A DNA stretch of 64,000 nt from Clostridium thermobutyricum. GTDB lineage: Bacteria; Bacillota; Clostridia; Ch29. How positions within the stretch are numbered: position 1 is the first letter of the stretch; each line of letters starts with the position of its first letter. The stretch is taken from contig JAENYX010000003.1 of the NCBI GenBank assembly GCA_016841565.1, positions 14,030-78,029 on the forward strand, given 5' to 3'. Below the pieces are notes generated by a model. The model searched no databases and was not told where the DNA came from. It saw nothing but the letters and a program-made list of their open reading frames with translations. Made by a program: the position numbers and the translations under genes. Positions 16,920 to 48,260 of the stretch are shown here, one piece after another.

Positions 16920-16924
16920 GAAAA

Positions 16925-20816: not shown

Positions 20817-20835
20817 ATTTGGAGGAAGTGTTGAA

Positions 20836-22767: not shown

Positions 22768-22791
22768 CCTTAGTACAATCCGTTTAAAAAT

Positions 22792-22812
22792 CAATAATGA
22801 TAATCCAATTAT
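22792..22812. promoter_or_regulatory. palindrome AATGATAAT-cca-ATTATCATT upstream of tctC
   Basis: 9-bp perfect arms, 35 bp before the tctC start. Candidate operator. Confidence 0.35.
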
Positions 22813-22845
22813 CATTTTGATTATAAAAAAAAGGAGGTTTAAATC

Positions 22846-23823: not shown

Positions 23824-23883
23824 CTGAATATTCCTATTGAAGGCCATACGGCCTTCAATAGGCCTTTATAAGGAGGTGACAGA

Positions 23884-24327
23884 ATGAAGAGTATAGGCGT
23901 TAACAGCATAATCGGTATTATCTTTATAGTTTTCAGCCTTTTCTGGAATACATTGATTGACAAACTACCCCAGGGTACAAAGCTGGCAGCCTATGGGCCA
24001 GGATTCTTTCCCAGGTTGGTTGCAGGGGGAATCATTGTCGTTTCAGTTTTATTGGTTATACAGGATTTGGTTAATAAGAATAAAAAGATCAAGTTCGAAT
24101 ATGAAAAAACCGATATCCTGAAAGTTATCGGCCTGATAGCAGTGATAATAGTATATCTTCTGGTCATGCCGACTTTTGGGTATGTAATCTCTACAATAGC
24201 CGCACTTGGTATCACACTGTGGTTATTTGGATTAAGAGATATAAAGACTTTCATTCTGGTATCCGTACTTTTTCCGATACTGTCAAACATACTGTTCCAG
24301 ACGGTATTGAAAGTAGGATTACCTTAA
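23884..24327 (+). CDS. tctB: tripartite tricarboxylate transporter small membrane subunit TctB
   Basis: 147 aa with 4 TM helices, located between tctC and tctA. Confidence 0.6.
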   Translation: MKSIGVNSIIGIIFIVFSLFWNTLIDKLPQGTKLAAYGPGFFPRLVAGGIIVVSVLLVIQDLVNKNKKIKFEYEKTDILKVIGLIAVIIVYLLVMPTFGYVISTIAALGITLWLFGLRDIKTFILVSVLFPILSNILFQTVLKVGLP

Positions 24328-24343
24328 ACAGGGAGGTGTTAAT

Positions 24344-25837: not shown

Positions 25838-26748
25838 CAAATATAATAGTCACTACTCCTTCATTCTGCAAATATGTAAAGGAACCCGGTGCCCGGTTGA
25901 ATGAGAATCAGATAGGAATTATATACGATTACGGATTAAAGGAATTTGAGGGCTTTGAGTATGAAAAGAAAGAGTCCATAGAGGCAATCATCGTGGGTCT
26001 GGAAAAAATAGACAAGGCTGTGCTCGACCACCTGCCCAATGTAAAAGTGATAGTAAAGCACGGGGCCGGGATAGACAACATAGACCTGGAGCTTGCAAAG
26101 CAAAAGAGTATCAATGTATACAACGTACCCGGAGCAAACAGGGAATCAGTAGCCGACGCAGCTTTTGCGTTGATGCTGAATATCTCAAGGATGGTTTGCC
26201 TGGCCGATAAATCGGTCAGAGAGGGGAAATGGATAAGATACTACGGAGTCGAGCTTGGAGGAAAAACGCTGTCCATTATAGGCTTTGGAGCCATTGGTAA
26301 ATCGGTTGCCAGAAGAGCAATGGGATTTGGGATGAAGATTCTTGCCTATGATGTCTATCCAAGCGAGATGGAAGGGGTTGAACTGGTGGATTTGGATTAT
26401 GCAATTGAGAACGGCGATTATATCTCACTGCATACTCCGCTGCTGGATTCTACCTACCATATGATAAACAGCGAAAAAATAGGTAAAATGAAGAGCAATG
26501 CCTTTGTGATCAATACTGCCAGGGGCGGATTGATTGACGAGGAAGCGTTGATAGAAGCCCTCAAAAATAAGAAAATTGCCGGGGCAGCCATTGATGTCCA
26601 TGAGAATGAACCAAATGTAAACCCTGGTTTTTTTGATCTAGACAATGTTGTTGTAACACCGCATCTTGCCGGTTTTACCCAGGAAGCTGCAAACAAAATC
26701 TCCTATGCATGCGCGGATTATATAATTAAGGACCTGAAAAAACAATAA
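25834..26748 (+). CDS. D-isomer-specific 2-hydroxyacid dehydrogenase (glyoxylate/hydroxypyruvate reductase or PGDH-like)
   Basis: NAD-binding motif GFGAIGKSVARRA and the catalytic R/E/H triad region (...TARGGLIDE...TPHLAG). It overlaps the tctA stop by 4 nt. Confidence 0.85.
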   Translation: MTNIIVTTPSFCKYVKEPGARLNENQIGIIYDYGLKEFEGFEYEKKESIEAIIVGLEKIDKAVLDHLPNVKVIVKHGAGIDNIDLELAKQKSINVYNVPGANRESVADAAFALMLNISRMVCLADKSVREGKWIRYYGVELGGKTLSIIGFGAIGKSVARRAMGFGMKILAYDVYPSEMEGVELVDLDYAIENGDYISLHTPLLDSTYHMINSEKIGKMKSNAFVINTARGGLIDEEALIEALKNKKIAGAAIDVHENEPNVNPGFFDLDNVVVTPHLAGFTQEAANKISYACADYIIKDLKKQ

Positions 26749-26764
26749 AGGTGATGACACTTAA

Positions 26765-27844
26765 ATGATTATAATGAAAGAGGAACAGGAACAGTTCATG
26801 CAAGAGATGTTCATGAAGGTAGGAGTATCCAGTGAGGATGCCCGGATAACCGCCCAGTCTCTGACACTGGCAGACTTGAGAGGAGTTAACTCACATGGAA
26901 TCCTGAGGCTCCCTATATATGTCCAAAGACTTAAAAGAGGCCTTATGGCAAACAAACCTGATATCAGGATAGAGAAGGAAGACATGACAACCGCTGTTAT
27001 GGATGGCGGTAATTATATTGCACAGGTTACAGGCAGAATTGCCATGAGAAAGGCCATCGAAAAGGCATCCGAGAATACGCTTGGTATGGTTCTTGTAAAG
27101 AACTCAAATCATTTTGGAGCTGCAGCCGAGTATTCAATTATGGCGGCTAAAGAGGGCATGATCGGCATAGCGGCAAGCAATACGGTGCCTCTGATGCCGC
27201 CGCCCGGAGGAAAGGATAAGGTGGTGGGGAACAACCCGCTTGCAGTATCTTTCCCCGGTGGCAGGTACGGCATTGTATCGGTTGATATGGCAATGAGCAG
27301 TGTTGCCCAAGGCAAAATAAGGAATGCCGAATTGAACAACAGGGAAGTCCCTTTGGGCTGGGGAATTGACAAGGAAGGAAAGGACACCACCAATCCCAGG
27401 GATATATTGGATGGAGGATTTTTGCTGCCAACGGGAGGGCCAAAGGGATATGGCCTTGCCATAGCCATTGAAATTCTTGCGGCAGCACTGAGCAACTCTC
27501 CTGTCAGCAAGGAGGTCAAATCTATTTACCAACTTGAGGAGAAGCTTGGCATAAGCCATATGTTCCTGGTTATAAACGCCAAAGCATTGATAGACCAGCA
27601 GGATTACAACAACAGGGTGGAGACACTTCTTGATATAATTAAAAACTGTCCTGCCGCATACGGGATAGAGGAGATATATTTCCCGGGTGAAATTGAGGAC
27701 AATATTATGAAGGACAGGCTGGCCAACGGTATGGTAATAACCCGGGAAATGGAGCTGGAACTGGACAAGCTGGCGGATGAGCTGAATGTCAAACGCATAA
27801 AGAGCTTTCTCAAAAACCGACAATTGAGGGAGGGTCTTGTATGA
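26765..27844 (+). CDS. Ldh2/MDH2-family oxidoreductase (malate / L-sulfolactate / ureidoglycolate dehydrogenase-like)
   Basis: Family motifs SHGILRLP and NHFGAAA...GNNP. Confidence 0.75.
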   Translation: MIIMKEEQEQFMQEMFMKVGVSSEDARITAQSLTLADLRGVNSHGILRLPIYVQRLKRGLMANKPDIRIEKEDMTTAVMDGGNYIAQVTGRIAMRKAIEKASENTLGMVLVKNSNHFGAAAEYSIMAAKEGMIGIAASNTVPLMPPPGGKDKVVGNNPLAVSFPGGRYGIVSVDMAMSSVAQGKIRNAELNNREVPLGWGIDKEGKDTTNPRDILDGGFLLPTGGPKGYGLAIAIEILAAALSNSPVSKEVKSIYQLEEKLGISHMFLVINAKALIDQQDYNNRVETLLDIIKNCPAAYGIEEIYFPGEIEDNIMKDRLANGMVITREMELELDKLADELNVKRIKSFLKNRQLREGLV

Positions 27845-33562: not shown

Positions 33563-35092
33563 ATGCTATTTAGGAGACATAAGGACAAGGAGACAGGCAA
33601 AGGAAAACAGCGGACCGGCATTTCCAAATACAAGCTGAGCGACTCACTGGATGCGAATGTACAGCTGTTTCAGCAGATATTCAATGATGATGATACGTTT
33701 AAAGTAAGGTACTTTGAAAATCAGCAGCATCCGCAGGTGAGGTGCTGCGTTTTATTTATTGAATGTATGGCCGATAATGAAATCATTAATGAGAATATAA
33801 TACAACCCATTGTTCAGAATACCATGCTCGAAAACTCCGGCGATATCCTGAGCAGTTTGCAGAACCAGGTGATTGTTTCGAATCACGTAGCAAAGACAAC
33901 AGATATTGATAAGCTTTCGGCCGCAATAATTCGTGGTGATACGGTGCTTTTCCTGGACGGTTGGCCGGTTGGGCTGATGATATGCTCAAAGGGATGGGCA
34001 TCCAGACCAATAAAAGAACCCCAGGGTGAAAGGGTTGCCAGTGGGCCAAGGGAAGGCTTTACAGAGTCCATTATGGTCAATCTCACCATGGTAAGAAGAA
34101 AGCTGGAAACACCCGATCTGAAAATGAAGATTATGACAATTGGGGTACAAACCAATACAAAAGTATGTGTTTGCTATGTGGAAGGCATTGTGCACCGGAG
34201 GATACTGGACGAAGTGTACAAAAGGCTGAAAGGCATTAATATAGACGGCATTCTGGATGCCGCGTATATTAATGAGATCATAAAGGATTCCCCGTTTTCG
34301 CCATTTAACACAATAGGAAACACCGAGAGGCCTGATATAGTGGCCGCAAAGCTGTTAGAAGGGCATATAGCCGTAGTTGTTGACGGCACACCCGTTGTTT
34401 TAACAATACCCTTATTATTTGTGGAAAATTTCCAATCCAATGAGGATTATTATGTTAATTTTTATTTTGCCACAACCAACAGACTATTAAGGGTAATGGG
34501 CTTTATTATTACAATTAGCGTCCCTGCAGTTTATACGGCTTTGGTGACATTTCACCAGGAGGCCATACCGACACCTTTGCTGTTAAGCATTTCCGCGGCA
34601 AGGCAGGGAGTACCTTTTCCTACCATTGTTGAAGTCATATTGCTTTTACTTATCTTTGAAATATTGAGAGAAACGGGATTACGAATGCCATACTTTGTAG
34701 GGCAGACATTAAGCATAATCGGAGCTATTGTATTAGGAACGGCATCGGTGGAAGCAAAGCTGGTAAGTGCCCCTATAGTTATAGTAGTTTCAATTACAGC
34801 TATTACCGGTCTTATGATACCGGGGATAAAAGTTGCAGCAATTTTTTTAAGGTTTATCTTTTTGTTTTTATCGGCCTTTATCGGATTATATGGTTATATA
34901 TTTGGAGTTATGGGTTTCTTGGTTTATTTGTGCCAATTGCGGTCGTTCGGAGTACCCTACATGCTGACATTGACCACTCTTGACCCAGGTGAATTAAAGG
35001 ATACGGCAGTAAGAGCACCATGGTGGTATATGAAGCTCAGACCCAAACTCATTTCAGCCAACAGGGTAAGGCAGGCAAACGGAGGCAAATAA
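33563..35092 (+). CDS. spore germination protein, GerA/GerKA family (A subunit)
   Basis: 509 aa with a soluble N-domain then 5-6 TM helices, and the GerAA-family region EGHIAVVVDGTPVVLTIP. Confidence 0.85.
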   Translation: MLFRRHKDKETGKGKQRTGISKYKLSDSLDANVQLFQQIFNDDDTFKVRYFENQQHPQVRCCVLFIECMADNEIINENIIQPIVQNTMLENSGDILSSLQNQVIVSNHVAKTTDIDKLSAAIIRGDTVLFLDGWPVGLMICSKGWASRPIKEPQGERVASGPREGFTESIMVNLTMVRRKLETPDLKMKIMTIGVQTNTKVCVCYVEGIVHRRILDEVYKRLKGINIDGILDAAYINEIIKDSPFSPFNTIGNTERPDIVAAKLLEGHIAVVVDGTPVVLTIPLLFVENFQSNEDYYVNFYFATTNRLLRVMGFIITISVPAVYTALVTFHQEAIPTPLLLSISAARQGVPFPTIVEVILLLLIFEILRETGLRMPYFVGQTLSIIGAIVLGTASVEAKLVSAPIVIVVSITAITGLMIPGIKVAAIFLRFIFLFLSAFIGLYGYIFGVMGFLVYLCQLRSFGVPYMLTLTTLDPGELKDTAVRAPWWYMKLRPKLISANRVRQANGGK

Positions 35093-35094
35093 CA

Positions 35095-36246
35095 ATGAGA
35101 AGAAAAGTATTTATTCCTATGCTGTTGATGATAAATATGACAATATTGACAGGATGCTGGAGCTACAGAGAGATTGACAGACTTTCAATTGTAGCAGGTG
35201 CGGCAGTTGACAAGGGTGAAGATGGAAAGTGCATTTTTACATTTGAAATTATAGATTTGCAGGAAGGCGGAAGAGATACAAATATTAAATCAAGACTATT
35301 GGAATCAGAAGGGTACACCATATTTGATGCAGTCAGAAATTCGCTGAAATTCACTGCCCCAAGGCCGTATTTCGGCCATATGGAGGTTGTTATCATAAGC
35401 CAGGAAATAGCAAGGGATGGGGTGATTGAAATTCTTGATTTTTTGAACCGCGACGCTGAGCCAAGGCTTACTGTAGATCTTTTGCTTTCCAAAGAGCAGA
35501 CTGCAAAGGAAATATTGAAAGCACAGAGTACTACAACTGATATACGTTCTTTTGAAATTTACGAAATGCTGGATGTCCAGAAACATTTGTCAAAATCACC
35601 CAAAGTTGAAGTTTACCAGTTCATTAATGAACTGCCATGCGAGGGATCCTCACCGTTTCTGCCTGCTATACGGATAACAGAAACGGCCGGTATAAAAACG
35701 ACAGAACTGTCGGGAACCGCAGTATTCAAGGAGGATAAGCTTATAGGATTTCTTGATGAAGAGGAGACCAAATATTTTTTATTTACAAAAGATAATATAA
35801 AGGGCGGCCTGCTTGCTTTAGAAAACCTTCCAAGCGCGAACAATGTAAATATATCCTTTGAGATATTCCATAACAAAACAGAGATAAAACCCGTGTATTC
35901 CAATGGAGAATTATCAATAAATATTGAGACAAAAACACAAATTACACTTGCTGAACAGGGTACCGAGTTGAACTTTACAAATGAAAGAGGAAGGTTAACC
36001 CTGAAGAAAGAAATGGAAGAGTTTCTTAAAGCAAATATACAAAAAGTGATTCAAAGGGTGCAGAAGGATTTTGCCGTTGACATTTTTGGATTTGGGAGTA
36101 TTGTAAACGCAGAGATGCCGACCCTATGGAAAGAGATAGGTCGTGACTGGAACGATATCTTTGCAGATTTGGATGTCAATGTGAATACAATTATAGAAAT
36201 CAGGGGCTCCGGGTTGTTATCCGACCCAATTAAGGTAGGGATGTAG
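35095..36246 (+). CDS. spore germination lipoprotein, Ger(x)C family (C subunit)
   Basis: Lipobox ILTGCWS, then GerAC-family architecture. ATG 35095 is preceded by GGAGG and overlaps the A-subunit stop region. Confidence 0.75.
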   Translation: MRRKVFIPMLLMINMTILTGCWSYREIDRLSIVAGAAVDKGEDGKCIFTFEIIDLQEGGRDTNIKSRLLESEGYTIFDAVRNSLKFTAPRPYFGHMEVVIISQEIARDGVIEILDFLNRDAEPRLTVDLLLSKEQTAKEILKAQSTTTDIRSFEIYEMLDVQKHLSKSPKVEVYQFINELPCEGSSPFLPAIRITETAGIKTTELSGTAVFKEDKLIGFLDEEETKYFLFTKDNIKGGLLALENLPSANNVNISFEIFHNKTEIKPVYSNGELSINIETKTQITLAEQGTELNFTNERGRLTLKKEMEEFLKANIQKVIQRVQKDFAVDIFGFGSIVNAEMPTLWKEIGRDWNDIFADLDVNVNTIIEIRGSGLLSDPIKVGM

Positions 36247-36252
36247 TTCATC

Positions 36253-36474
36253 ATGTTATTGGTAATGATTACTTTTGTCGGTGTATTATTTATATTGACA
36301 GACCTTATCCCTGTTTATCAAAACAAGCGGTGGAAGCTGTTCTGGGTATATTCTGCCATCATGGCCTTTGTATATGTACTGACTATATTCATCACAATGG
36401 GCATAAAACTGCCCAGCCCGGCTGTTCCATTGAGAAACTTAATAACGGAAATATTCGGAATATACCCGGAATGA
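36253..36474 (+). CDS. small two-TM membrane protein inside the germinant-receptor operon (possible D subunit)
   Basis: 73 aa with two hydrophobic helices, located between the C and B subunit genes. Confidence 0.4.
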   Translation: MLLVMITFVGVLFILTDLIPVYQNKRWKLFWVYSAIMAFVYVLTIFITMGIKLPSPAVPLRNLITEIFGIYPE

Positions 36475-36510
36475 TGGTATGACTATAAATGATACTGAAA
36501 GAGGAAAGCC

Positions 36511-37596
36511 ATGGAAAGCGAGATAATTACAAAAAAGCAGTGTATTGCAATAATGGTTGCATTTTTACTGGGCAGTTCTCTTGTATTAGGAGCCGGTGGT
36601 GAGGCTAGAAGAGATGCCTGGATGGCGGTTTTAGCTGCAATGGTTATGTCATTACCTGTATTTTTTGTTTATGCAAGGCTGGTCTCGCTTTTTCCCGGTA
36701 AGGGTCTTTACGAAATATTGCCTGTTGTTTTTGGGAGTACCATTGGCAAGCTGGTGGTACTGATGTACATATGGTATGCATTCCATTTAGGGGCTCTGGT
36801 AATCAGGAACTTTTCGGAGTTTATTATGATAGTTTCATTACCTGATACACCCCAGTACGCCGTTGCAATTTTCATGACAGTTTTAGGCATCTGGGCAGTA
36901 AAGGCGGGGATTGAAGTAATTGGACGGTGGTCTGCGATGATGCTTCCGGTTATAATTATGGCCATTTTATTATTATCCCTATTGTTGATTCCTAGCATGG
37001 AATTGAAAAATATTAAACCTGTCTTAAGCGAAGGCATCATGCCTGTAATGATGGCTGCTTTTTCTACATTTTCCTTTCCCTTTGCCGAGATGGTGTTATT
37101 CACAGTGATATTCGGAAATCTAAAAAGCAACATTAGTGCGTATAAAATATATTACTGGAGCTTATTTATCGGAGGAACGATTATTTTATGGGTTACGGTG
37201 AGAAACCTTCTTGTTTTGGGTGCAGCAAATGTCTTTATCATGTATTTCCCGTCCTATGTCTCGGTACGGCTTATCAATATAGGTAATTTCCTGCAAAGAA
37301 TTGAGGTATTGGTGGTACTTGTTTTTATGTTGAGCGGCTTTGTAAAAGTATGCATATGCCTGCTGGCTGCCGGAAGAGGAATAGCAAAAGTATTGAACTT
37401 CAACGATTATCGCGGGATTGTTGCTCCGGTGGGATTGCTGATGATGATATTTTCGCTAATCGTTTACAGCAATACCAAAGAAATGTTCGAATGGGCAAGC
37501 AGAATTTATCCATTCTATGCAATACCCTTTGAAGTTATCCTCCCCCTGACCATTTGGATTGCCGCGGAAATCAAGGTTGGTTTGGTGAAAAATTAG
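36511..37596 (+). CDS. spore germination protein, GerAB/GerKB family (B subunit, APC-superfamily permease)
   Basis: 361 aa with ~10 TM helices and a GerAB-like N-terminus (ITKKQCIAIMVAFLLGSSL). Confidence 0.8.
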   Translation: MESEIITKKQCIAIMVAFLLGSSLVLGAGGEARRDAWMAVLAAMVMSLPVFFVYARLVSLFPGKGLYEILPVVFGSTIGKLVVLMYIWYAFHLGALVIRNFSEFIMIVSLPDTPQYAVAIFMTVLGIWAVKAGIEVIGRWSAMMLPVIIMAILLLSLLLIPSMELKNIKPVLSEGIMPVMMAAFSTFSFPFAEMVLFTVIFGNLKSNISAYKIYYWSLFIGGTIILWVTVRNLLVLGAANVFIMYFPSYVSVRLINIGNFLQRIEVLVVLVFMLSGFVKVCICLLAAGRGIAKVLNFNDYRGIVAPVGLLMMIFSLIVYSNTKEMFEWASRIYPFYAIPFEVILPLTIWIAAEIKVGLVKN

Positions 37597-37853: not shown

Positions 37854-39575
37854 ATGTCAGAGCTGTTGGGGAAGCACTATGTAGAGCAGTTGAAAACGGC
37901 TTTTGAAGCCGCATATAGTGGGATTGTGCTGGTGGATACAAGAATAAGCATTGTGGCATTGAACCCGGCGGCTGAAAGAATATTGGGCGTCAAACGGGGT
38001 GAAGCCGTAGGGAAATCTTTTATGGACCTGGTTCCCGAAAGCGGTTTTCCCGAAGTGTTGGAACAAAAAAGGAGTCAGGCGGGCTGCAGCCTGAAGATTA
38101 GGGAAAAGGTTTATCTCAGCAACAGAAGCCCTGTTATTGTTAGCGGCCAATTGGTGGGTGCAGTGGCGGTTATGCAGGATATGACCGAATTAAACCAATG
38201 CAGGATTCAACTGGAAGAAACCAGAACGCTCAAAAACGTTCTGGAGGCTATATTGAATTCGGCTTACGAAGGGGTTGTCGTTGTTGATGAGAACGGAATT
38301 ATTACCATGTTTAACGATGCGTACTGCAGATTTCTCAATGTTAAGCAAGAGGACGTAGTTGGGAAGCACGTGACCGATGCCATAGAAAATACCCGCATGC
38401 ATGTGGTGCTGAAAACCGGAAAGGCTGAGATCCGCCATATACAGCGTATCCATGGCCATGATATGATATGTGACAGGATACCTATAAAGGAAGACGGGAA
38501 GATAACCGGCGCCGTAGGAAAGGTTTTGTTCAGGGATGTTTCGGAGGTGGACGAGCTGCTGAAACAAACCGAACATTTAAAAGAACAGTTGGAATACTAT
38601 AAAAACGAACTAGCAAAGGAACGGAAAACTAAGTATTCCCTTGATAACATAATCGGTCAGAGCCGGGTGATAGCTGTCTTGAAGGAGCTGGCGGGAAAAT
38701 GCGCCAAGAGTTCATCTACCGTTCTGATACGCGGAGAAAGCGGGACCGGCAAGGAGTTGCTGGCCCGTGCCATTCACAACCTTAGCCCAAGAAGAAATAA
38801 CCCGCTTATAAAGGTGAACTGTGCTGCCGTGCCCGAAAACCTGTTGGAGTCAGAGCTTTTCGGGTATGAGGAGGGTGCATTTACCGGTGCCAAAAAAGGT
38901 GGGAAGCTTGGGAAGTTCGAACAGGCCCGGGGCGGCACCATTTTTCTCGATGAAATAGGGGACATGCCGGTCAAGATGCAGGCCAAGCTATTACGGGTAC
39001 TGCAGGAGAAGGAAATCGAAAGGCTGGGCAGCACCGGAACCGTCAAGGTGGATGTAAGGGTGATAGCAGCCACCAACAGGAACCTGGAGGAATTGATTGC
39101 CGAGGGGAGATTTAGAGAGGATCTGTTTTACAGGCTGAACGTAATAAGCCTTGAGATGCCTTCGCTAAGAAGCAGGAAGGAAGATATTCATCTCCTGGTA
39201 GATTTCCTGGTTCAGAAGCTGTGCAAAAATATGGGTATCGGCAGAAAAGCCATCAGCCCGGCGGCCTATGACATTTTGTTCCGCTATTCCTGGCCGGGTA
39301 ATGTGAGAGAGCTGGAAAACGTGCTTGAAAGGGCGCTGAATGTGATTGACAATGATACAATCAATCCTGAGCATCTGCCCTATTACATCCGTCAGCCTAA
39401 GGATTTGTTGAAGGACGGTGAATTTCACCTGAAATCCATAGTCGAGGATACCGAAAAGGAGGTAATGAGAAGGGCATTCAGTGTCGCCGGAGGTAATGCT
39501 TTAGAAGCGGCCAAGCTGCTTGGGATTAGCAAATCGACCTATTATGAGAAGGCTGCCAAATACGGGTTACAGTGA
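37854..39575 (+). CDS. sigma-54-dependent transcriptional activator with tandem PAS domains
   Basis: Two PAS folds, an AAA+ domain with GESGTGKE and ESELFGYEEGAFTGA, and a C-terminal Fis-type HTH. Confidence 0.85.
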   Translation: MSELLGKHYVEQLKTAFEAAYSGIVLVDTRISIVALNPAAERILGVKRGEAVGKSFMDLVPESGFPEVLEQKRSQAGCSLKIREKVYLSNRSPVIVSGQLVGAVAVMQDMTELNQCRIQLEETRTLKNVLEAILNSAYEGVVVVDENGIITMFNDAYCRFLNVKQEDVVGKHVTDAIENTRMHVVLKTGKAEIRHIQRIHGHDMICDRIPIKEDGKITGAVGKVLFRDVSEVDELLKQTEHLKEQLEYYKNELAKERKTKYSLDNIIGQSRVIAVLKELAGKCAKSSSTVLIRGESGTGKELLARAIHNLSPRRNNPLIKVNCAAVPENLLESELFGYEEGAFTGAKKGGKLGKFEQARGGTIFLDEIGDMPVKMQAKLLRVLQEKEIERLGSTGTVKVDVRVIAATNRNLEELIAEGRFREDLFYRLNVISLEMPSLRSRKEDIHLLVDFLVQKLCKNMGIGRKAISPAAYDILFRYSWPGNVRELENVLERALNVIDNDTINPEHLPYYIRQPKDLLKDGEFHLKSIVEDTEKEVMRRAFSVAGGNALEAAKLLGISKSTYYEKAAKYGLQ

Positions 39576-39610
39576 TTCCGGAAATTCGGAAAACAGTCCG
39601 GATTTCCGGA

Positions 39611-39638
39611 CTGTTGCACGATACAGTCTGTGCAACAG
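39611..39638. promoter_or_regulatory. candidate enhancer (UAS) for the PAS sigma-54 activator: CTGTTGCAC-N10-GTGCAACAG
   Basis: Perfect 9-bp inverted repeat centred ~108 bp upstream of the -24 element at 39733. The TGT-N-ACA / TGCAC-N-GTGCA style is typical of bEBP sites. Confidence 0.45.
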
Positions 39639-39707
39639 CAAGATGAGCTTGATGGTTGATTTACATTACGGTGATTCCGAAAATCTGGAATAGCATTAAC
39701 CAAAAAG

Positions 39708-39728
39708 ACCGGCAAAGCCGGTTTTTTT
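39708..39728 (+). terminator. rho-independent terminator (ACCGGC-aaa-GCCGGT plus T7) ending the regulator transcript
   Basis: Short GC stem directly followed by TTTTTTT, 4 nt before the sigma-54 promoter. Confidence 0.6.
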
Positions 39729-39731
39729 GGT

Positions 39732-39746
39732 TGGCATCAAAATTGC
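39732..39746 (+). promoter_or_regulatory. sigma-54 promoter TGGCAT-N5-TTGCT
   Basis: Canonical GG/GC spacing, ~140 nt upstream of the thiolase start. Confidence 0.7.
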
Positions 39747-39886
39747 TCATATATGAGAAAAGGAGATAAGCGTTGTGCCGGTTAGCTGTCGGCAGTCGGG
39801 AGTTGGCAGCCGGTAACCGGCAGCTATATTCTTCAGAATGGACATGATTTGTGGAGTAAAGAAAATTATGGAGGGAGGAAAACATT

Positions 39887-41065
39887 ATGACAGAGGTCGT
39901 TATTGTCAGCGCCGTAAGAACACCTATAGGAACTTTTGGCGGAAGCTTTAAGGATGTTTCTGCAATCAGGCTTGGTGTAGCTGCTGTCAAAGAAGCTATG
40001 GTACGAGCAAATGTAAAACCTGAAATGATTGAAGAAGTAATATTCGGAAATGTGCTTCAGGCGGGTCTTGGCCAAAATGTAGCACGGCAAGTAGCAATCG
40101 GGGCAGGAATTCCTGTAGAAGTGCCATCAATGACTATTAATAAGGTTTGCGGCTCAGGCTTGAAAACAGTTAGCCTGGCTGCTCAGGCAATTATGCTGGG
40201 AGAAGCGGATGTGGCCATTGCCGGCGGTACGGAAAATATGAGCATGTCACCATATATCGTACCTAAAGCGAGATGGGGACACAGGATGGGAGACGGAACA
40301 ATAGTTGACTACATGGTTCAGGATGGTTTGACGGATATTTTCAACAACTATCACATGGGGATTACTGCCGAGAATATTGCAGAGAGGTGGAACATTACAA
40401 GACAGGAACAGGATGAATTCGCCCTGGAAAGCCAGTTAAGGGCAGAGAAAGCAATAAAGGGCGGAAGATTTAAAGATGAGATAGTACCTGTTGAAATTCC
40501 CCAGAGAAAAGGCGACCCAATAGTTGTAGATACCGATGAACACCCTCGCTTTGGTTCTGCCATAGAAGGTTTATCAAAGCTAAAGCCTGCTTTTAAGAAG
40601 GATGGAACAGTAACAGCGGGTAATGCATCAGGAATAAATGATGGAGCCGCAGCGCTTGTTTTAATGTCAAAGGAAAAAGCTGAAAGACTGGGATTAAAAC
40701 CATTGGCCACCATAGTATCCTTTGCATCAGCCGGAGTGGATCCCCGGATTATGGGATATGGTCCTGTTCCTGCATCAAAAAAGGCATTAACCAAAGCTAA
40801 AATGACCATTAAAGACATAGACCTGGTTGAAGCAAATGAAGCCTTTGCGGCACAATCCCTGGCGGTAGCAAGAGACTTGGGACTGGATGCTGAGAAGACA
40901 AATGTGAATGGCGGAGCTATTGCCCTGGGCCACCCTATTGGATGTTCGGGAGCAAGAATTCTTATTACATTGATTCATGAAATGGTAAAAAGGGATAAGA
41001 AAACCGGCCTCGCGACTCTTTGTATTGGCGGAGGGCAAGGTACTTCGGTAATTGTTAAGAGATAA
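39887..41065 (+). CDS. acetyl-CoA C-acetyltransferase (thiolase II)
   Basis: N-terminus [12 protein letters not shown], active-site region NKVCGSGL and the C-terminal GGGQG motifs. 392 aa. Confidence 0.9.
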
Positions 41066-41086
41066 ACAGCAAAGGAGGTATGTAAG

Positions 41087-41740
41087 GTGAATAAGTTAAT
41101 TGCTATCGACCATGCGGTTAGTATGATCCATGATGGTATGACAATTATGGTCGGCGGTTTCCTGGGATGCAAGAACCCTTTCAGAATAGTTGACGCATTA
41201 GTGGAAAAAGGTGTTAAGGACATAACGCTTATTGCAAATGATACTGCCTTTCCTGAAGTTGGAATTGGAAAACTTATTGTAAATAAGCAGGTAAAAAGAT
41301 TGATAGCATCACATATTGGGACTAACAAAGAATCCGGAGCGCAGATGAATGCCGGGGAGCTTGAGGTTGAACTGGTGCCTCAGGGAACATTGGCAGAGAG
41401 GATTAGGGCAGCCGGTGCCGGCCTGGGAGGGATACTCACTCCAACAGGCCTGGGAACAATAGTAGAGGAAGGCAAAACGGTAATAACTGTAGATGGAAAT
41501 GATTACTTGCTGGAGAAACCTTTAAAAGCTGATGTTGCACTTATTACCGGAGCAAAGGTTGATAGGAAAGGCAACATCAGATACAGGAAGTCAGCAAGGA
41601 ATTTCAATCCATTGATGGCTGCGGCTGCTGATTTGGTAATTGTTGAAGCGGATGAGATAGTTGAAGTAGGGGAGATTGATCCGGACGACGTCATGACTCC
41701 AGGACTATTTGTGGATTACATAGTGGGAGGTAATGAGTGA
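41087..41740 (+). CDS. scoA: 3-oxoacid (acetoacetate) CoA-transferase subunit A
   Basis: CoA-transferase family I alpha-subunit motifs (MVGGF...GQGTLAE). GTG start with an AAAGGAGG RBS. Confidence 0.85.
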
Positions 41741-42399
41741 TGGATAAAAACATGCAAAAAGAATTCATTGCAAAAAGGGTAGCCAAAGAATTGAGGGATG
41801 GAGATGTTGTAAACCTTGGGATAGGTCTGCCTACCCTGGTGGCTAATTATCTGCCCGAAGATATTGAAATCACCCTGCAGTCGGAAAATGGCTTTGTTGG
41901 AACGGGTCCTGCTCCCGAAGAAGGAAAAGAAGATCCCGATTTGGTCAATGCAGGGGGCCAATATGTAACTATAAACCCCGGAGGGGCATTTTTCAATAGC
42001 GCGGATTCCTTTTTGATAATAAGAGGGGGCCACGTTGATATAACAGTACTTGGTGCTCTGGAGGTAGACGAAAAGGGTAATCTTGCAAACTGGATGGTGC
42101 CTGGCAAAATGGTTCCGGGAATGGGTGGGGCGATGGACCTGGTCACAGGTGCCAGGAAAGTAATTATCGCTATGAATCATACCGCAAAGGGCAACCACAA
42201 GATACTTAAGGAGTGCCAGCTGCCTCTGACAGCTGTGAACGTTGTAGACCTTATAGTAACAGAGATGGGAGTAATGGAAGTAACGGAAAAGGGGCTTGTT
42301 CTAAAAGAAATAAATCCGGAGTTTACAATACAAGAGGTTCAGAATGCAACAGATGCAACACTGATTATACCCGAGGATTTAAAGCAAATGGAAATCTAG
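41737..42399 (+). CDS. scoB: 3-oxoacid (acetoacetate) CoA-transferase subunit B
   Basis: Beta-subunit with the conserved glutamate-containing SENG motif (LQSENGFVG). It overlaps the scoA stop. Confidence 0.85.
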
Positions 42400-42458
42400 A
42401 ACAGTCACCGGAGGAGTAACAGAGCAGCCATAGGAAATATAAAAGGAGGCAAGCGCAA

Positions 42459-43220
42459 ATGCTGGAAAACAAAGTATGCATTGTAACAGGGGCGGCCAGC
42501 GGCATAGGGTTAGCCATATCGGAAGCTTTTGCAAAGGACGCTGCCAAGGTTGTCATGGCAGATATAAACAAAGAAAAGCTAAAGCTTGAGGCAGGCAGAT
42601 TAGGCGCAGATTTCTTTGAAGCGGATTTAAGCAAAAAGCAGGGTTGTAAGGGTTTGGTTGATTTTACTCTGGGCAAATTCTCAAAAGCGGATGTTCTTGT
42701 AAATGTTGCCGGTATTCAAACGGTGGCCCCCATTGACGAATTCCCCGAGGATAAATGGGATTTCATGATTTCTTTAATGCTGACAGCTCCGTTCTTATTG
42801 ACCAAATACGTCTGGCCTTCAATGAAAAATCAGAACTGGGGAAGAATAATCAACCTGAATTCCATCCACGGACTGGTGGCATCTGAATTCAAAGCGGCCT
42901 ACGTCTCGGCTAAACATGGTCTGGGAGGATTAACGAAAACTGCTGCTTTAGAAGGAGGGAAATATGGAATAACTGTAAACTCAATTTGTCCGGCATATGT
43001 TAAAACACCTTTGGTTGACAACCAGGTAGACGCACAGGCAAAATCACACGGAATATCAAGAGATGAGGTTGTTGGAGAGATAATGCTGCAAAAGGCAGCT
43101 GTAAAGAAATTAATAGAACCTTCGACTATTGGAGAAGTAGCTATGTTCCTATGCTCTGATGCAGGAGCTCATATTACAGGATCCATGATGACGATAGATG
43201 GAGGTTGGACAGCCGGTTAA
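42459..43220 (+). CDS. 3-hydroxybutyrate dehydrogenase (SDR)
   Basis: TGAASGIG, NVAGIQ and YVSAKHG motifs, and a C-terminus ...ITGSMMTIDGGWTAG like characterised BdhA proteins. It sits in a sco operon. Confidence 0.8.
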   Translation: MLENKVCIVTGAASGIGLAISEAFAKDAAKVVMADINKEKLKLEAGRLGADFFEADLSKKQGCKGLVDFTLGKFSKADVLVNVAGIQTVAPIDEFPEDKWDFMISLMLTAPFLLTKYVWPSMKNQNWGRIINLNSIHGLVASEFKAAYVSAKHGLGGLTKTAALEGGKYGITVNSICPAYVKTPLVDNQVDAQAKSHGISRDEVVGEIMLQKAAVKKLIEPSTIGEVAMFLCSDAGAHITGSMMTIDGGWTAG

Positions 43221-43251
43221 ACAAATGTAAAAAATGATGGGAGGTTGGATT

Positions 43252-44565
43252 ATGTTAGGTATTATCTTGGGATTGGCATTACTTATGTTCCTGGCTTACA
43301 GAGGTTATTCTATAATTTGGGTAGCTCCGGTTACAGCAGGCGTAGTTGCTTTAATGGGGGGACTTCCACTACTTGAGGCTTATAAAGAGACCTACATGAC
43401 GGGATTTGTAGGATTTACAAAGTCATGGTTCCCTGTATTCATGCTGGGAGCAATATTTGGACACTTAATGGATTATACCGGCGCGGCAAAATCAATTGCT
43501 CTATGGTTAACTAAAATGTTTGGAGCAAAGAGAGCCATCCTTGGCGTAATAATTGGCTGCGCAGTTTTGACCTATGGCGGAATAAGCTTGTTTGTAGTTG
43601 TATTTGCTATGTATCCCATAGCGCTGGCACTATATAGAGAAGCTAATATTTCAAGAAAGCTTATACCCGGAGCAATAGCCCTTGGTTCCTTTACCTTTAC
43701 CATGACTGCAATACCCGGTACGCCTCAAATACAAAACTTAATTCCAATGGATTATTTCCATACAACTCCTGCCGCAGCTCCCATAATGGGTATGGTATCG
43801 GCGGTACTAATGATGGGACTGGGTTATGCTTATCTTGTGTGGAAAGAGAGAAAGCTCACTGCCAGAGGCGAAGTATTTACTGAGCCTAAAAAGAAGGCAA
43901 ACAACGGAGCAGAATCAGAGGTGGCAGCTACAACTGCAACCGCAGAATACATACCAAATCCATTGATATCGGTTTTACCTTTGATTTCGGTAATATTAAC
44001 ATTAAACTTTTTAGGCTGGGATATAGTCCTTGCTTTGATATCCGGCATAGTATTGTCAATGCTGACTAATATGAAGCTGTATCAGGGATTTACAAAAACC
44101 GTCAGTGCCGGAGCGACCGGGTCCATAATTGCAATTATTAACACAAGCGCCGCAGTTGGATTCGGTACTATCGTAAGAGCGGTTCCGGGGTTCAAAACAT
44201 TGACAGACGCAGTTATGAACATGAAAGGAAGCCCGCTTATATCTGAAGGAGTGGCAGTTAATATACTGGCCGGTGCAACAGGCTCGGCCTCGGGCGGTAT
44301 GGGTATAGCACTGGCAGCTTTAGGAGACAAGTATTATCAAATAGCATTGCAAACAGGTATCAGTCCCGAGGCCTTCCACCGGGTAGCATCCCTGGCATCC
44401 GGAGGTCTTGATACGCTTCCTCATAATGGAGCCGTGTTAACCCTGCTGGCAATTACGGGTATGACACATAAGGATTCTTATATTGACATATGTTTAACCT
44501 CTTTGATATTACCAATAGTTTCTACTATACCGGCAATAATATTGGGAAGCCTGGGAATATACTAG
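43252..44565 (+). CDS. GntP-family permease, probable 3-hydroxybutyrate/short-chain hydroxy-acid:H+ symporter
   Basis: About 12 TM helices. It is positioned like B. subtilis yxjC in the yxjC-scoA-scoB-bdh operon. ATG 43252 follows GGGAGG. Confidence 0.55.
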   Translation: MLGIILGLALLMFLAYRGYSIIWVAPVTAGVVALMGGLPLLEAYKETYMTGFVGFTKSWFPVFMLGAIFGHLMDYTGAAKSIALWLTKMFGAKRAILGVIIGCAVLTYGGISLFVVVFAMYPIALALYREANISRKLIPGAIALGSFTFTMTAIPGTPQIQNLIPMDYFHTTPAAAPIMGMVSAVLMMGLGYAYLVWKERKLTARGEVFTEPKKKANNGAESEVAATTATAEYIPNPLISVLPLISVILTLNFLGWDIVLALISGIVLSMLTNMKLYQGFTKTVSAGATGSIIAIINTSAAVGFGTIVRAVPGFKTLTDAVMNMKGSPLISEGVAVNILAGATGSASGGMGIALAALGDKYYQIALQTGISPEAFHRVASLASGGLDTLPHNGAVLTLLAITGMTHKDSYIDICLTSLILPIVSTIPAIILGSLGIY

Positions 44566-44642
44566 AAGTTAGTAAATGATACATAGCCTCCACCTGATAT
44601 CAACTTTGGGCGGAGGCTATTAATTCAAGGGAGGTCAATGTA

Positions 44643-45587
44643 ATGATATTGGAGGAGATCAAAAAGATCGGTGTGGCGGGAGCGGGTACCATGGGCTCGG
44701 GTATAGCCCTGATATTTGCGCTGAAAGGGTATGAAGTGGCCGTAACAGATGTTTCACAGGAATACCTGGATAATGCCGGAAGGATTATACAAATAAATAA
44801 CAGCAGCTTAATTGAAGAAAAAATAATAACGGAGCAAGAAGCCAAAGCTGCAATAGAAAGAATATCCTTTACAATAGATAAAAAAGCATTTTGTGACGCC
44901 GATGTAATAATTGAAGCCATCATAGAAAAAATGGGTATTAAACAGGACTTCTGGGAAGAAATTGAGAGTATGGTCAGAGAGGATGCTATACTTGCCACCA
45001 ATACGTCGGGACTTAGCATTACAGAAATATGCCGGAAGGTAAAGCAAAAAGGCAGATTTGCAGGGATGCACTGGTGGAACCCGCCGCATATTATACCTTT
45101 GATAGAGCTTATAAAAGGGGATGAAACAGCGGACGAGACCATAAAGGTATTAGCCGAATTGGTTGACAGGATTGGCAAGAAGTCGGTTGTAGTTCTAAAG
45201 GATGTTAATGGATTTATAGGCAACAGGATACAATTTGCAGTGTTCAGAGAAGCGCTGAAGATTGTGGAAGATGGAATAGCTACGGCCCAAGATGTTGATA
45301 AGGCAATGAAATATGGACCCGGATTCAGGTATCCTGTATTAGGACCCTTTGAAACAGCAGATCTGGGCGGGCTTGATACATTCTATTATATTTCTTCCTA
45401 TTTGTTTAATGAGCTAAGCAGTGCAAAGGAACCAACCCTGCTTCTGCAAGGATTAATGGAAAATAAGAACTTAGGGGTAAAGACGGGCAAAGGTTTCTAT
45501 GATTACTCCGGCCGAAAAGGCGAAGAAGCAATGAAACGGAGAGACAGAAACTTCTTCAAGATGTTAAAGCATATTCACAACGCTTAA
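44643..45587 (+). CDS. 3-hydroxyacyl-CoA / 3-hydroxybutyryl-CoA dehydrogenase
   Basis: N-terminal GVAGAGTMGSGIA Rossmann motif and the 3HCDH C-terminal domain. Confidence 0.85.
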   Translation: MILEEIKKIGVAGAGTMGSGIALIFALKGYEVAVTDVSQEYLDNAGRIIQINNSSLIEEKIITEQEAKAAIERISFTIDKKAFCDADVIIEAIIEKMGIKQDFWEEIESMVREDAILATNTSGLSITEICRKVKQKGRFAGMHWWNPPHIIPLIELIKGDETADETIKVLAELVDRIGKKSVVVLKDVNGFIGNRIQFAVFREALKIVEDGIATAQDVDKAMKYGPGFRYPVLGPFETADLGGLDTFYYISSYLFNELSSAKEPTLLLQGLMENKNLGVKTGKGFYDYSGRKGEEAMKRRDRNFFKMLKHIHNA

Positions 45588-46456: not shown

Positions 46457-47886
46457 GACAAAGCCTGGAGGTACCTCAGCATGTAAAACAATCGGTAATA
46501 GACTTTGCCAATGCAGGAAAAGAGATAACAATACCGAAGAAAGAAATAGAGTACTATGGTACCACCATAGCAGGGTACATGGTAATGGACCCCGATACCG
46601 GGGCCGCCGGCTACCTGATATCAGGAGGTACGGCCGGTGGCAAGACAAGTCTTCTCCAGCTTATCGGTCAGAAACTCAAAGACACAACCCTGTCAGCAGT
46701 TGTGTTTTTAGTTGAAGCCCGTTGTAGATTATACGTGCCCGGCCAAGACGATATATATTATGAGGCGGTATCGGAAGGCTTTGTAAGAGGCTACATTGGT
46801 GGTTTTGCAGGTGCCGTTAAAGCGGAATGGAACAATATAAAAGACTTACCCAAAATGGTTAAAGCAGCTTTAAAATTTGCAGGGGATTATATCACCAAAG
46901 ACGAGTTCAGGGATAAAGTAAAGGATGATTTGGAAAACCTTGTAAAAATGCTCCCTGAAGTCTGGAGTAAAATAGATGAAATAACGCAGAGCATATATGA
47001 ATATTATCTGAATGAAGTGGAAGACGTAGCATATGGGGCTTTGGGCCTGGCAAGAGCCGACAGGTATTTTCAAGAATTTGCAATATGCTATTCAGGTGGT
47101 AAAATTGCCGGATTTATAACCGTAACAGTGGCAGGGGCCATAATCGGAGCAAAGGTAGTAGCAATAATAAAGGATTTTATAATGGCCAGCAAGCTGGGAG
47201 TAATATTTAAAATCCTGCAGGTAGCCAAAGGAAGTGCCATTAAATACGTAGTCGATGTATTCAATAAGGCAAGCTCAAGTGTAAAGAGTGTATTCTTTAA
47301 CGTACTAGATAAAATTAAGGCTGAAATAAATGATGCATCCCTGCTAAGGTTGGTTCCCAAGTATTTCAGTGAAGGTATGGACGAAATAGAGGATACAATA
47401 AGACGGTACGGGGATGAGGCTGCGGAAAAAATAGCGGAAAGTATAATATATATAAAGCAACTAATAGGTAATCTTAACATAAAAAATGCAATAGAGAAAT
47501 CAGCGGATGATGCTAACGATTGGTGGAGAATCATGCAGGGATATGACAAACCCCCATATAAACCAGGAACCAGGGTAATTGAATTCGAACTTGAAAATAA
47601 TCATACTTTTGTCAGAGTATATGATGATATAAATTCTTCGATGAAAGGACAATGGATTATGAAAGAGGAGGATATTCTTGGGTTGTCTCCGGCTCAGATT
47701 AGGCAGAAGTTTGCTTTGCCTGCGGAGCCAAAATATATAGTAGATGTTGAATTAGATGCAGGAACTAACTTGAGGTGTGGTATAGCCAATGGGGTCGAAG
47801 ATTGGGGAGTACAAGGAGGAGGAGTACAGTTTGATTTAATGGGACAATTTGTTAATGGATTTAAAAACCCAAGACCACTTAATTAA
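46457..47886 (+). CDS. putative polymorphic-toxin-like protein; the reading frame is open upstream of the first ATG (46573) with no start or RBS, so it is possibly a 5'-truncated orphan toxin module. Distinct ~110-aa C-terminal domain (…KYIVDVELDAGTNLRCGIANGVEDWGVQGGGVQFDL…) of unknown activity.
   Basis: Lower GC than flanking DNA. The frame continues 39 codons upstream of the first Met with a protein-like sequence (VIDFANAGKEITIPKKEIEYYG...DPDTGAAGYLISGG). It is followed 14 nt later by a small AT-rich gene, and its 3' end is duplicated downstream. Confidence 0.4.
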
Positions 47887-47895
47887 AAGGGAGGG
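47857..47895 (+). repeat. cassette-junction repeat, copy 1 (toxin 3' end plus immunity RBS): GGATTTAAAAACCCAAGACCACTTAATTAAAAGGGAGGG
   Basis: 35 of 39 identical to 48461-48499. Confidence 0.8.
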
Positions 47896-47900
47896 ATCAT

Positions 47901-48260
47901 ATGAAAAACGAGATTGTTTTCAAATATAATAAAAATATATTAATCATTAATGATAAACAACTTGAATTTGAATATGAAATAGAAGATATTAAAGAAGTTA
48001 ATGGCATACTTGCTGTTCTTTTAGGCGTATCTGCTAAATCATATAGTATAGACAATTTGTATGGAGTAAATTCAAAAGGAGAAATTATTTGGCGTGTACA
48101 AAGTGTAAATGAAATATATCCAAGCATTATTAGCTCTCCCTATGTTGCTTTAAAAATTGCTCCTTCAGGGGATATAGCAGTTACTAATTTTGCTGGTGTA
48201 CGTTATTTTGTAAATCCTAAAGACGGTAGTATTACAGGTAAAGAAGTAATAGGTTGGTGA
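47901..48260 (+). CDS. small protein, candidate cognate immunity protein
   Basis: 119 aa and very AT-rich (~30% GC). Strong GGGAGGG RBS 5 nt upstream, beginning 14 nt after the toxin-like gene. Confidence 0.4.
   Translation: MKNEIVFKYNKNILIINDKQLEFEYEIEDIKEVNGILAVLLGVSAKSYSIDNLYGVNSKGEIIWRVQSVNEIYPSIISSPYVALKIAPSGDIAVTNFAGVRYFVNPKDGSITGKEVIGW

Follow-up and report, generated by a model that had tools for sequence, protein, structure and literature searches.

Control of 3-hydroxybutyrate use by sigma-54 and a PAS-domain activator is already known, and the locus analyzed here does not overturn current understanding. It consists of a predicted PAS-domain activator gene and the six-gene 3-hydroxybutyrate/acetoacetate operon that follows it, at positions 37854-45587 of a stretch of 64,000 nucleotides from Clostridium thermobutyricum contig JAENYX010000003.1 (the whole stretch is called the window below). 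In Pseudomonas aeruginosa, the PAS-containing orphan activator HbcR (PA2005) is required, together with RpoN, for growth on (R)-3-hydroxybutyrate and responds to this compound. The HbcR systems of P. aeruginosa and P. fluorescens resemble the present locus in that a PAS activator and sigma-54 switch on 3-hydroxybutyrate dehydrogenase and uptake genes. HbcR is a proteobacterial protein with one PAS domain (residues 17-123), whereas the window activator has two, a comparison of architecture only, and the window operon additionally carries CoA-transferase, thiolase and second dehydrogenase genes.

In Escherichia coli, the AtoSC-atoDAEB system likewise places acetoacetate catabolism genes under sigma-54, through AtoC. 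The atoDAEB operon encodes the AtoDA CoA-transferase, a thiolase and the transporter AtoE. AtoS phosphorylates AtoC, a response regulator, whereas the window activator has PAS domains and neither a receiver nor a kinase; in addition, ato contains no 3-hydroxybutyrate dehydrogenase, and its transporter is AtoE rather than a GntP-like permease. The yxjC-scoA-scoB-yxjF(bdh) cluster of Bacillus subtilis shares with the window operon a GntP-type permease, a two-subunit CoA-transferase and a 3-hydroxybutyrate dehydrogenase. It has no thiolase, no gene of the 3-hydroxyacyl-CoA dehydrogenase (3HCDH) family and no adjacent activator, and its gene order differs from that of the window. An earlier note on this DNA, made by a model from the sequence, had contrasted the control of the two clusters; since SigE and CcpA-negative, not sigma-54, are the groups in which the B. 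subtilis genes are listed, the contrast was fair. The note had also presented sigma-54/PAS control as something out of the ordinary, which was overstated given AtoC with sigma-54 in E. coli and HbcR with RpoN in Pseudomonas.

Among clostridial activators, PrdR, the proline reductase activator of Clostridioides and relatives, has the PAS-AAA+-helix-turn-helix (HTH) arrangement of the window activator and a different target operon. Nie et al. (2019; PMC6615313) predicted five clostridial sigma-54 regulons, those of XcgR, CrbR, AhcR, XcaA and YctR. As in the window, these activators adjoin sigma-54 promoters of CoA-transferase, GntP-type permease, thiolase or hbd genes, and XcgR, CrbR and YctR have three upstream palindromic sites. 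The site motifs differ (e.g., TGTWCG-N5/6-CGWACA for XcgR (Cbei_3352) and TGTA-N8/9-TACA for CrbR), a TTCCGG or CCGGAA site was not found in the supplement of that study, no 3-hydroxybutyrate dehydrogenase cluster is listed in it, and the regulons were assigned to butyrate/butanol synthesis.

We proposed, with a probability of roughly 0.72, that the window locus is a substrate-inducible, sigma-54-dependent operon for the uptake and catabolism of 3-hydroxybutyrate and acetoacetate in an anaerobic spore-forming member of the Bacillota. With such an operon, the control of ketone-body use by sigma-54 would reach beyond Proteobacteria to spore-forming anaerobes, and, as its activator looks nonorthologous to the known ones, it suggests that this pathway was repeatedly placed under sigma-54 control.

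Conservation of the Activator, the Promoter, and the Operon

The locus comprises seven codirectional open reading frames (ORFs), namely the activator gene and six operon genes with gaps of at most 77 nt, and no convincing terminator was found on the + strand between the operon genes. Its genes and the elements around the operon promoter are as follows.

37854-39575, + strand, enhancer-binding protein of 573 aa with PAS1, PAS2, a sigma-54 AAA+ domain and a Fis-type HTH (Pfam)
39698-39732, + strand, intrinsic terminator of the activator gene, core stem 39707-39722, abutting the -24 element
39732-39747, + strand, sigma-54 promoter TGGCAT-N5-TTGCT (TGGCATCAAAATTGCT), GG at 39733-39734 and GC at 39745-39746
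39758-39886, + strand, predicted 5' untranslated region of ~129 nt with ribosome-binding site GGAGGGAGG
39887-41065, + strand, acetoacetyl-CoA thiolase, 392 aa (Thiolase_N/C; TIGR01930)
41087-41740, + strand, CoA-transferase subunit A, AtoD/CtfA type (NF007394)
41737-42399, + strand, CoA-transferase subunit B (TIGR02428)
42459-43220, + strand, (R)-3-hydroxybutyrate dehydrogenase of the short-chain dehydrogenase/reductase (SDR) type (TIGR01963)
43234-44565, + strand, permease, distant member of the GntP/ion-transporter superfamily, presumed importer of 3-hydroxybutyrate/acetoacetate
44643-45587, + strand, divergent enzyme of the 3-hydroxyacyl-CoA dehydrogenase family, 314 aa

We obtained related contigs by exact protein look-up and compared the activator-operon spacers between loci. 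The exact activator protein occurred only in NCBI and Logan assemblies. Its nearest relatives, at 86, 84, 77, and 72% identity, were all metagenomic, and the next ones, at ~58% identity and below, came from metagenome-assembled genomes (MAGs) and named isolates, with Desulfotomaculum copahuensis (L010) and Thermanaeromonas toyohensis (L011) at 56-57%. When the GTDB species genomes were scanned with the activator, only distant activators (40-45% identical) were recovered and an orthologue was not found. Gene order was identical to that of the window operon in loci L005-L007, of which L005 carries the 84% identical activator. In L008, the locus of the 72% identical relative, and in L009, the activator was followed by permease, fused CoA-transferase, thiolase, a flavodoxin-like protein, SDR and 3-hydroxybutyryl-CoA dehydrogenase (Hbd) genes. 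The order in D. copahuensis was activator, fused transferase, permease and SDR, without thiolase and 3HCDH; the T. toyohensis cluster contained permease, fused transferase, thiolase, SDR and Hbd; and that of a Bacillota MAG (L017) contained fused transferase, a 465-aa ORF, thiolase and SDR, without 3HCDH. This 465-aa ORF had no Pfam annotation and was 44-58% identical to the permeases of the clusters.

Thus, the permease, the CoA-transferase and the (R)-3-hydroxybutyrate dehydrogenase were constant partners of the activator, usually joined by the thiolase and a 3HCDH-family enzyme. Because the activator kept the same families while gene order and subunit fusion changed, these results provide good evidence for a regulator-target relationship. 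Relatives at ~52% identity (Natroniella, Pelotomaculum, and Calderihabitans) adjoined different genes and were therefore regarded as paralogues. In Sedimentibacter acidaminivorans (L018), a cassette of transferase A, transferase B, SDR, permease and 314-aa enzyme genes came after a different activator (43% identical, with a different HTH and no boxes of the kind described below) and a sigma-54 promoter, TGGCATAGTATTTGCT. This cassette indicated that sigma-54 control recurs with different activators and that the 314-aa enzyme belongs to the pathway.

Within the pattern TGGCAC-N5-TTGCW, the GG and GC doublets of the predicted promoter had a spacing of exactly ten bases. The element was on the same strand as the operon and stood 140 nt upstream of the thiolase ATG; transcription would start near 39758. 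An equivalent sigma-54 promoter was present in the activator-operon spacers of L005, L008, D. copahuensis, T. toyohensis and the Bacillota MAG, and also in those of S. acidaminivorans and of a paralogous activator unit of D. copahuensis (L010b). In the orthologous spacers, the elements upstream of the first operon gene were TGGCACTAAAATTGCA, TGGCATTGAAATTGCA, TGGTACGTGCCTTGCT, TGGCACGGAAATTGCA and TGGCACGAACCTTGCT. By itself the pattern was not rare, with two matches in the 64 kb against 0.59 expected; the second match (22997) lay inside a TctC gene and was taken as chance. For the spacers, the chance level of promoter and boxes was estimated by shuffling each spacer, and the mean number of promoter matches in the shuffles was 0.000-0.006 per spacer.

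The activator gene ended in a hairpin with a U-run (-22.9 kcal/mol, z -7.1). A hairpin with a T-run occupied the same place in L005 and L008, between the promoter-proximal enhancer box (box 3 below) and the -24 element, and in D. copahuensis and the Bacillota MAG the terminator stood between the activator gene and the boxes; no terminator was identified in the T. toyohensis spacer. The terminator thus separated the activator gene from the promoter in five lineages (the window, L005, L008, L010, and L017) and, as it abuts or precedes the promoter, read-through from the activator gene should not express the operon. These comparisons supported most of the framework drawn in the earlier note, in which a unit of sigma-54 and an enhancer-binding protein drives a 3-hydroxybutyrate/acetoacetate operon: link and promoter were conserved across distant Bacillota, the terminator was found as described, and the promoter was present and conserved, although the note had ended it one base short, at 39746.

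The leader contained a stable hairpin at 39776-39826 (whole leader, -38.2 kcal/mol, z -3.3), and this segment was deleted in L005. No Rfam family reached its gathering score over the leader and spacer. A sigma-70-like match in the leader (39803-39830) was dismissed, as it was not conserved in L005.

Probable Enhancer Boxes Upstream of the Promoter

Four further elements were recognized in the spacer.

39576-39591, enhancer box 1, TTCCGGAAATTCGGAA, starting right after the activator stop codon, zero mismatches to the box pattern
39596-39611, enhancer box 2, GTCCGGATTTCCGGAC, 20 bp from box 1
39675-39690, enhancer box 3 (promoter-proximal), TTCCGAAAATCTGGAA, centre 50.5 bp upstream of the -24 GG
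39611-39638, perfect 9-bp inverted repeat CTGTTGCAC-N10-GTGCAACAG, probably not functional as enhancer

A repeat finder returned three related palindromic units of 14-16 bp at ~39577, 39597, and 39676. These boxes are 16-bp palindromes of the TTCCGGAA-TTCCGGAA type, with the general form TTCCGGAAWTYCGGAA, and were found in each orthologous spacer. The triad occurred with the same promoter in six operon lineages, including D. copahuensis and T. toyohensis, and in two paralogous activator units. Box 1 held the same position in L005, L008, L011, and L013, and the sequence of box 3 was identical in L005. In the six lineages, boxes 1 and 2 were spaced by 20-21 bp and box 3 stood 69-79 bp downstream of box 2; the centre of box 3 was 38.5-51.5 bp upstream of the -24 GG in L008, D. 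copahuensis and the Bacillota MAG. For none of the orthologous spacers did a shuffle contain as many boxes as observed (shuffle mean, 0.002-0.011 boxes). In a three-way alignment, the islands of conservation coincided exactly with the three boxes, the T-run of the terminator and the -24/-12 element. Elsewhere in the window, box matches at up to two mismatches occurred at 3305 (two mismatches) and 23625 (one mismatch); the latter lay within a TctC gene and was taken as chance.

The earlier note had assigned the role of upstream activating sequence to the 9-bp inverted repeat. The repeat does exist and is perfect; its centre is 108.5 bp upstream of the -24 GG, and it is unique in the window, where 0.01 matches are expected by chance. 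It was degraded in L005 and absent in L008 (where the segment is AT-rich instead), L010, L011, and L017. Since the boxes were conserved and the repeat was not, the three boxes, rather than the repeat, are likely the enhancer sites of the activator. Box 2 forms the core of a 24-bp palindrome (39592-39615) with perfect 11+11 arms, AACAGTCCGGA and TCCGGACTGTT, and the right arm of this palindrome overlaps the left arm of the 9-bp repeat, which may therefore partly be a by-product of the palindromic sequence in this place.

The boxes accompanied a particular type of DNA-binding helix. The recognition region of the window activator is SKSTYYEK (SKSTFYEK in orthologues), and the region [SG][KR][ST]x[FY]YxK was shared by the box-bearing activators, that is, by the six orthologues, the activators of the two paralogous activator-SDR units and the unrelated, non-PAS activator of locus L027. 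Activators with HRTSLYQK, SRAWLYQK or HRTALYKK helices (L012, L016, and L018) had no boxes.

The two paralogous units, at 14415-17188 of the D. copahuensis contig and at 8937-11703 of that of Desulfofundulus thermobenzoicus (L014), each have a PAS activator ahead of a single 259-aa SDR gene, and their spacers contain a related box triad (TTCCGGAGCACCGGAA, GTACGGAAATCCGGAA, and GTACGGAATTCCGGAA) and a sigma-54 promoter. They look like duplicated regulator-target modules in which the box sequences have shifted slightly.

As a specificity test, we scanned metagenomes for the double box TTCCG-N6-CGGAA-N5-TCCG-N6-CGGA; the test failed. Nearly all of the 80 matches listed were unrelated or due to chance, including 20-bp tandem repeats, and among these matches only L027 had an activator abutting the boxes and a downstream sigma-54 promoter. 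At L027 (1614-10667), the gene for a 620-aa activator is followed right after its stop codon by the boxes TTCCGCAAAAACGGAA and GTCCGTAAAAACGGAA and then by the promoter TGGCATGGATGTTGCT, ahead of an operon for an Opp-type ABC transporter and a pyridoxal-phosphate-dependent decarboxylase. The helix of its activator is GKTQFYKK; the TTCCG-N6-CGGAA half-sites thus appear to accompany this helix type generally. In the literature library that was searched, no paper pairing TTCCGGAA with sigma-54 was found.

Enzymes and Permease of the Operon

The thiolase, the two transferase subunits and the 3-hydroxybutyrate dehydrogenase named in the earlier note were all borne out by curated model cut-offs and catalytic motifs. 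The thiolase scored 516 bits with TIGR01930 (cut-off 240.55) and contains the Cys88, His348, and Cys379 motifs. Subunit A of the transferase scored 321.6 bits with NF007394 (acetate CoA-transferase alpha, the AtoD equivalog; cut-off 315), and subunit B scored 323.2 bits with TIGR02428 (cut-off 243.55), with SENG at residue 49 and the catalytic Glu at residue 50. The pair thus belongs by these models to the AtoDA/ScoAB-type 3-oxoacid CoA-transferases, for which acetyl-CoA or succinyl-CoA would be a possible donor. The SDR scored 318.5 bits with TIGR01963 (cut-off 307.05), and its top PDB matches were all D-3-hydroxybutyrate dehydrogenases. In its alignment with 1WMB, the motifs that we take to hold the catalytic Ser, Tyr, and Lys and the substrate-binding Gln, His, Lys, and Gln of the Pseudomonas fragi enzyme were conserved.

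The other two products were assigned less closely. A permease is present in the operon, as claimed, and its match to GntP is weak: it scored 27.2 bits with PF02447 (cut-off 22.5) and 18.3 bits with TIGR00791 (cut-off 292.75). It was 44-48% identical to the GntP-family permeases of every orthologous cluster, and these cluster orthologues carry PF02447. The last gene, which the note had called a 3-hydroxybutyryl-CoA dehydrogenase, does encode a member of the 3HCDH family, but a divergent one that scored 258.4 bits with the Hbd model NF004474 against a cut-off of 408 and is thus not a canonical Hbd. It was 36-42% identical to canonical Hbd proteins (41.5% to that of Clostridium butyricum), and the Hbd proteins of the L008 and T. 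toyohensis clusters were 56-62% identical to the C. butyricum protein. The motifs presumed to carry the catalytic Ser, His, and Asn of C. butyricum Hbd were conserved, and membership of the family therefore holds.

The 314-aa enzyme has the motifs HWWNPPHIIPLIE, GFIGNRIQF and GPGFRYPVLGPFET and a C-terminal extension, and scored equally with FHMPC dehydrogenase, a family member of the free-acid type. These motifs presumably resemble those of the branch acting on free 3-hydroxy acids (L-carnitine dehydrogenase and lambda-crystallin), and the enzyme may act on a free (S)-3-hydroxy acid. Its subfamily was kept at 68-87% identity in Sedimentibacter, Tissierella, Anaerosalibacter, and others. Proteins of 314-318 aa in the window (44643-45587), L005 (15755-16699), and L018 (10001-10957) form a subfamily distinct from canonical Hbd, and in these three loci the gene always adjoined those for an SDR 3-hydroxybutyrate dehydrogenase, a two-subunit CoA-transferase and a permease. 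A 3HCDH-family (S)-3-hydroxybutyrate dehydrogenase has reportedly been published from Desulfotomaculum ruminis, an unverified lead for which literature and PDB-name searches gave no confirmation. For the handling of the (S)-enantiomer, the subfamily offers a small enzymological lead.

Domains of the Activator

The earlier description of the regulator as a PAS-domain sigma-54 activator was correct. Pfam detected two PAS domains, Sigma54_activat (PF00158, 247.5 bits), AAA_lid_14 and HTH_8 (29 bits), and both the Walker A motif GESGTGK (residue 294) and GAFTGA (residue 341) were intact. Its top NCBIfam match was PrdR (NF041552), with 526 bits over residues 127-571 only, below the cut-off of 795; with AtoC (NF008469) it scored 353.7 bits against a cut-off of 714, and it had no Response_reg domain. 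As it also remained under the cut-offs of NifA, NtrC, and other curated models, we regarded it as an enhancer-binding protein of no named equivalog.

The two PAS domains differed in their conservation. PAS2 (residues ~122-222) was nearly invariant over all paralogues, whatever their target, and its nearest solved relatives were the PAS domains of CitA and DcuS that are cytoplasmic and bind no ligand. PAS1 (residues 11-113) was variable among paralogues and contained no histidine; it is therefore the likelier ligand sensor, and a His-ligated haem sensor is unlikely. The comparison argues against haem sensing of the FixL/EcDOS type by PAS1; its scope was His-ligated haem, and flavin and Fe-S cofactors fall outside it. 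Nothing in the PAS comparison pointed to redox sensing, and it included no specific search for cofactor motifs.

Proposed Mechanism and Alternative Explanations

Taken together, we proposed the following course of events. The activator gene would be transcribed separately and end at the strong terminator abutting the operon promoter, on which sigma-54 RNA polymerase, judging from the sequence and conservation of TGGCAT-N5-TTGCT, would sit as a closed complex. Activator dimers would bind the three 16-bp TTCCGGAA-type palindromes, two of them distal and, being 20 bp apart, on one helix face, and the third ~50 bp upstream of the -24 element. As in the family at large, the dimers would assemble into an active AAA+ ring whose GAFTGA contacts sigma-54, so that the promoter opens. 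PAS1 probably senses the inducer, 3-hydroxybutyrate or acetoacetate, and the conserved PAS2 probably relays the signal. The permease would import the acid, the SDR dehydrogenase would oxidize (R)-3-hydroxybutyrate to acetoacetate, the AtoDA-type transferase would make acetoacetyl-CoA from it, and the thiolase would yield two acetyl-CoA. The most plausible role of the 314-aa enzyme is to admit the (S)-enantiomer to the pathway, by acting on transferase-made (S)-3-hydroxybutyryl-CoA or directly on the free (S)-acid. The conserved box triad provides a concrete, testable enhancer model, and for anaerobes the activator offers a possible switch that responds to 3-hydroxybutyrate.

Several observations weigh against this proposal. 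Neither a sigma-54 gene nor a sigma-54 domain was found in the ORFs of the window; two additional units of a sigma-54 activator and promoter in the window imply that the organism uses sigma-54. The proximal box stands unusually near the promoter. In T. toyohensis, box 3 stands 160 bp from the GG, with the whole triad ~110 bp further upstream, and the geometry is therefore not strictly fixed. The TTCCG-N6-CGGAA half-sites are not regulon-specific, as they occur with the unrelated L027 activator and also by chance in metagenomes, and the activator of L015 has the shared HTH motif yet no boxes at its examined locus. Finally, whether the pathway runs toward use or production cannot be read from the sequence.

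This last point bears on a fermentative explanation, in which thiolase, CoA-transferase and the dehydrogenases would serve as an electron sink by turning acetyl-CoA into acetoacetate and 3-hydroxybutyrate, or by supplying butyrate formation, with the permease as exporter of the product. All of the reactions are reversible, similar sigma-54-controlled clostridial clusters have been annotated as butyrate/butanol synthesis, and MaoC, acyl-CoA dehydrogenase and electron transfer flavoprotein genes adjoin the cluster in relatives. Neither crotonase nor butyryl-CoA dehydrogenase was found in the operon, however, and the characterized analogues HbcR and AtoC are catabolic. GntP is a family of uptake symporters, and a ligand-sensing activator together with a GntP-type permease would usually signal substrate-induced catabolism, so that we consider the fermentative explanation quite improbable. 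It is also unlikely that the same sigma-54 catabolic operon serves, and is induced by, another short 3-hydroxy or 3-oxo acid, such as 3-hydroxyvalerate, or acetoacetate only. That the permease is only a distant GntP relative, that the 314-aa dehydrogenase is of unassigned specificity and that other SDR genes, in D. copahuensis and Desulfofundulus, are under paralogous activators with related boxes would fit such a substrate; against it, the SDR passes the 3-hydroxybutyrate dehydrogenase model and aligns with the conserved active-site motifs of P. fragi D-3-hydroxybutyrate dehydrogenase.

In the explanation advanced by the earlier note, the 9-bp repeat would be the activator site, activity would be redox-gated through the PAS domain and the operon would serve polyhydroxybutyrate (PHB) turnover in sporulation. 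The perfection and uniqueness of the repeat and its typical enhancer distance speak for it, as do the germinant-receptor operon just upstream and the listing of the related B. subtilis yxjC-scoAB operon in the SigE sporulation regulon. The repeat, however, was found degraded in the closest relative and missing from all others, whereas the TTCCGGAA boxes were kept, and it overlaps the edge of box 2. Redox gating is disfavoured by the histidine-free PAS1 and by the likeness of PAS2 to the non-sensing PAS domains of CitA and DcuS, and a check of the 46 window ORFs having Pfam matches showed none with a domain of a PHB synthase, a depolymerase or a phasin. Neither redox gating nor PHB turnover was thus upheld, and we regard the explanation as a whole as very unlikely.

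Going beyond the substrate-inducible catabolic operon proposed above, the activator could represent an undescribed PAS1-PAS2 enhancer-binding family with a fixed TTCCGGAA triad and direct sensing of 3-hydroxybutyrate, and both enantiomers could be degraded through a free-acid, (S)-specific 314-aa enzyme. We put this forward tentatively and rather doubt it in this full form; if true, it would add a new subfamily of enzymes and provide a portable 3-hydroxybutyrate sensor based on sigma-54.

Other Sigma-54 Units and Neighbouring Genes

The second sigma-54 unit of the window (4957-15371) begins with a PrpR_N-PAS-AAA+-HTH activator gene (4957-6930), followed by TGTACA-type palindromes around 7060-7095 and the promoter TGGTATCGTTATTGCA at 7230-7245. 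Its operon encodes a 3-hydroxyisobutyrate-dehydrogenase-like enzyme, a dihydroxy-acid dehydratase, a glyoxalase-fold protein and an aldehyde:ferredoxin oxidoreductase, and also carries two TAXI-TRAP transporter genes. The third unit (48459-55642) opens with two regulatory genes, one for a histidine kinase whose sensor domain is SBP_bac_3 (48459-50612) and one for a response-regulator activator of the NtrC type (50646-51998). Behind them come the promoter TGGCACATTAATTGCG (52097-52112) and, at 52137-55642, TAXI-TRAP genes together with a DUF1850 gene.

An operon for a germinant receptor of the GerA, GerC, and GerB type (33563-37596) lies directly upstream of the activator gene. No functional link between it and the 3-hydroxybutyrate unit was found, and the upstream neighbours differ in the relatives. 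Two ORFs of 435 and 119 aa without Pfam match follow 3' of the operon (46579-48260). The window has a G+C content of 44.7% and encodes, besides the GerA-type germinant receptor and the aldehyde:ferredoxin oxidoreductase, several TRAP and Tct transporters, a gene content consistent with an anaerobic spore-former living on organic acids. At 20782-27844, a GntR/FCD regulator gene is followed by genes for an HMGL-like lyase/synthase, TctC and TctA, a D-2-hydroxyacid dehydrogenase and an Ldh_2-family dehydrogenase, which together look like a further organic-acid utilization cluster.

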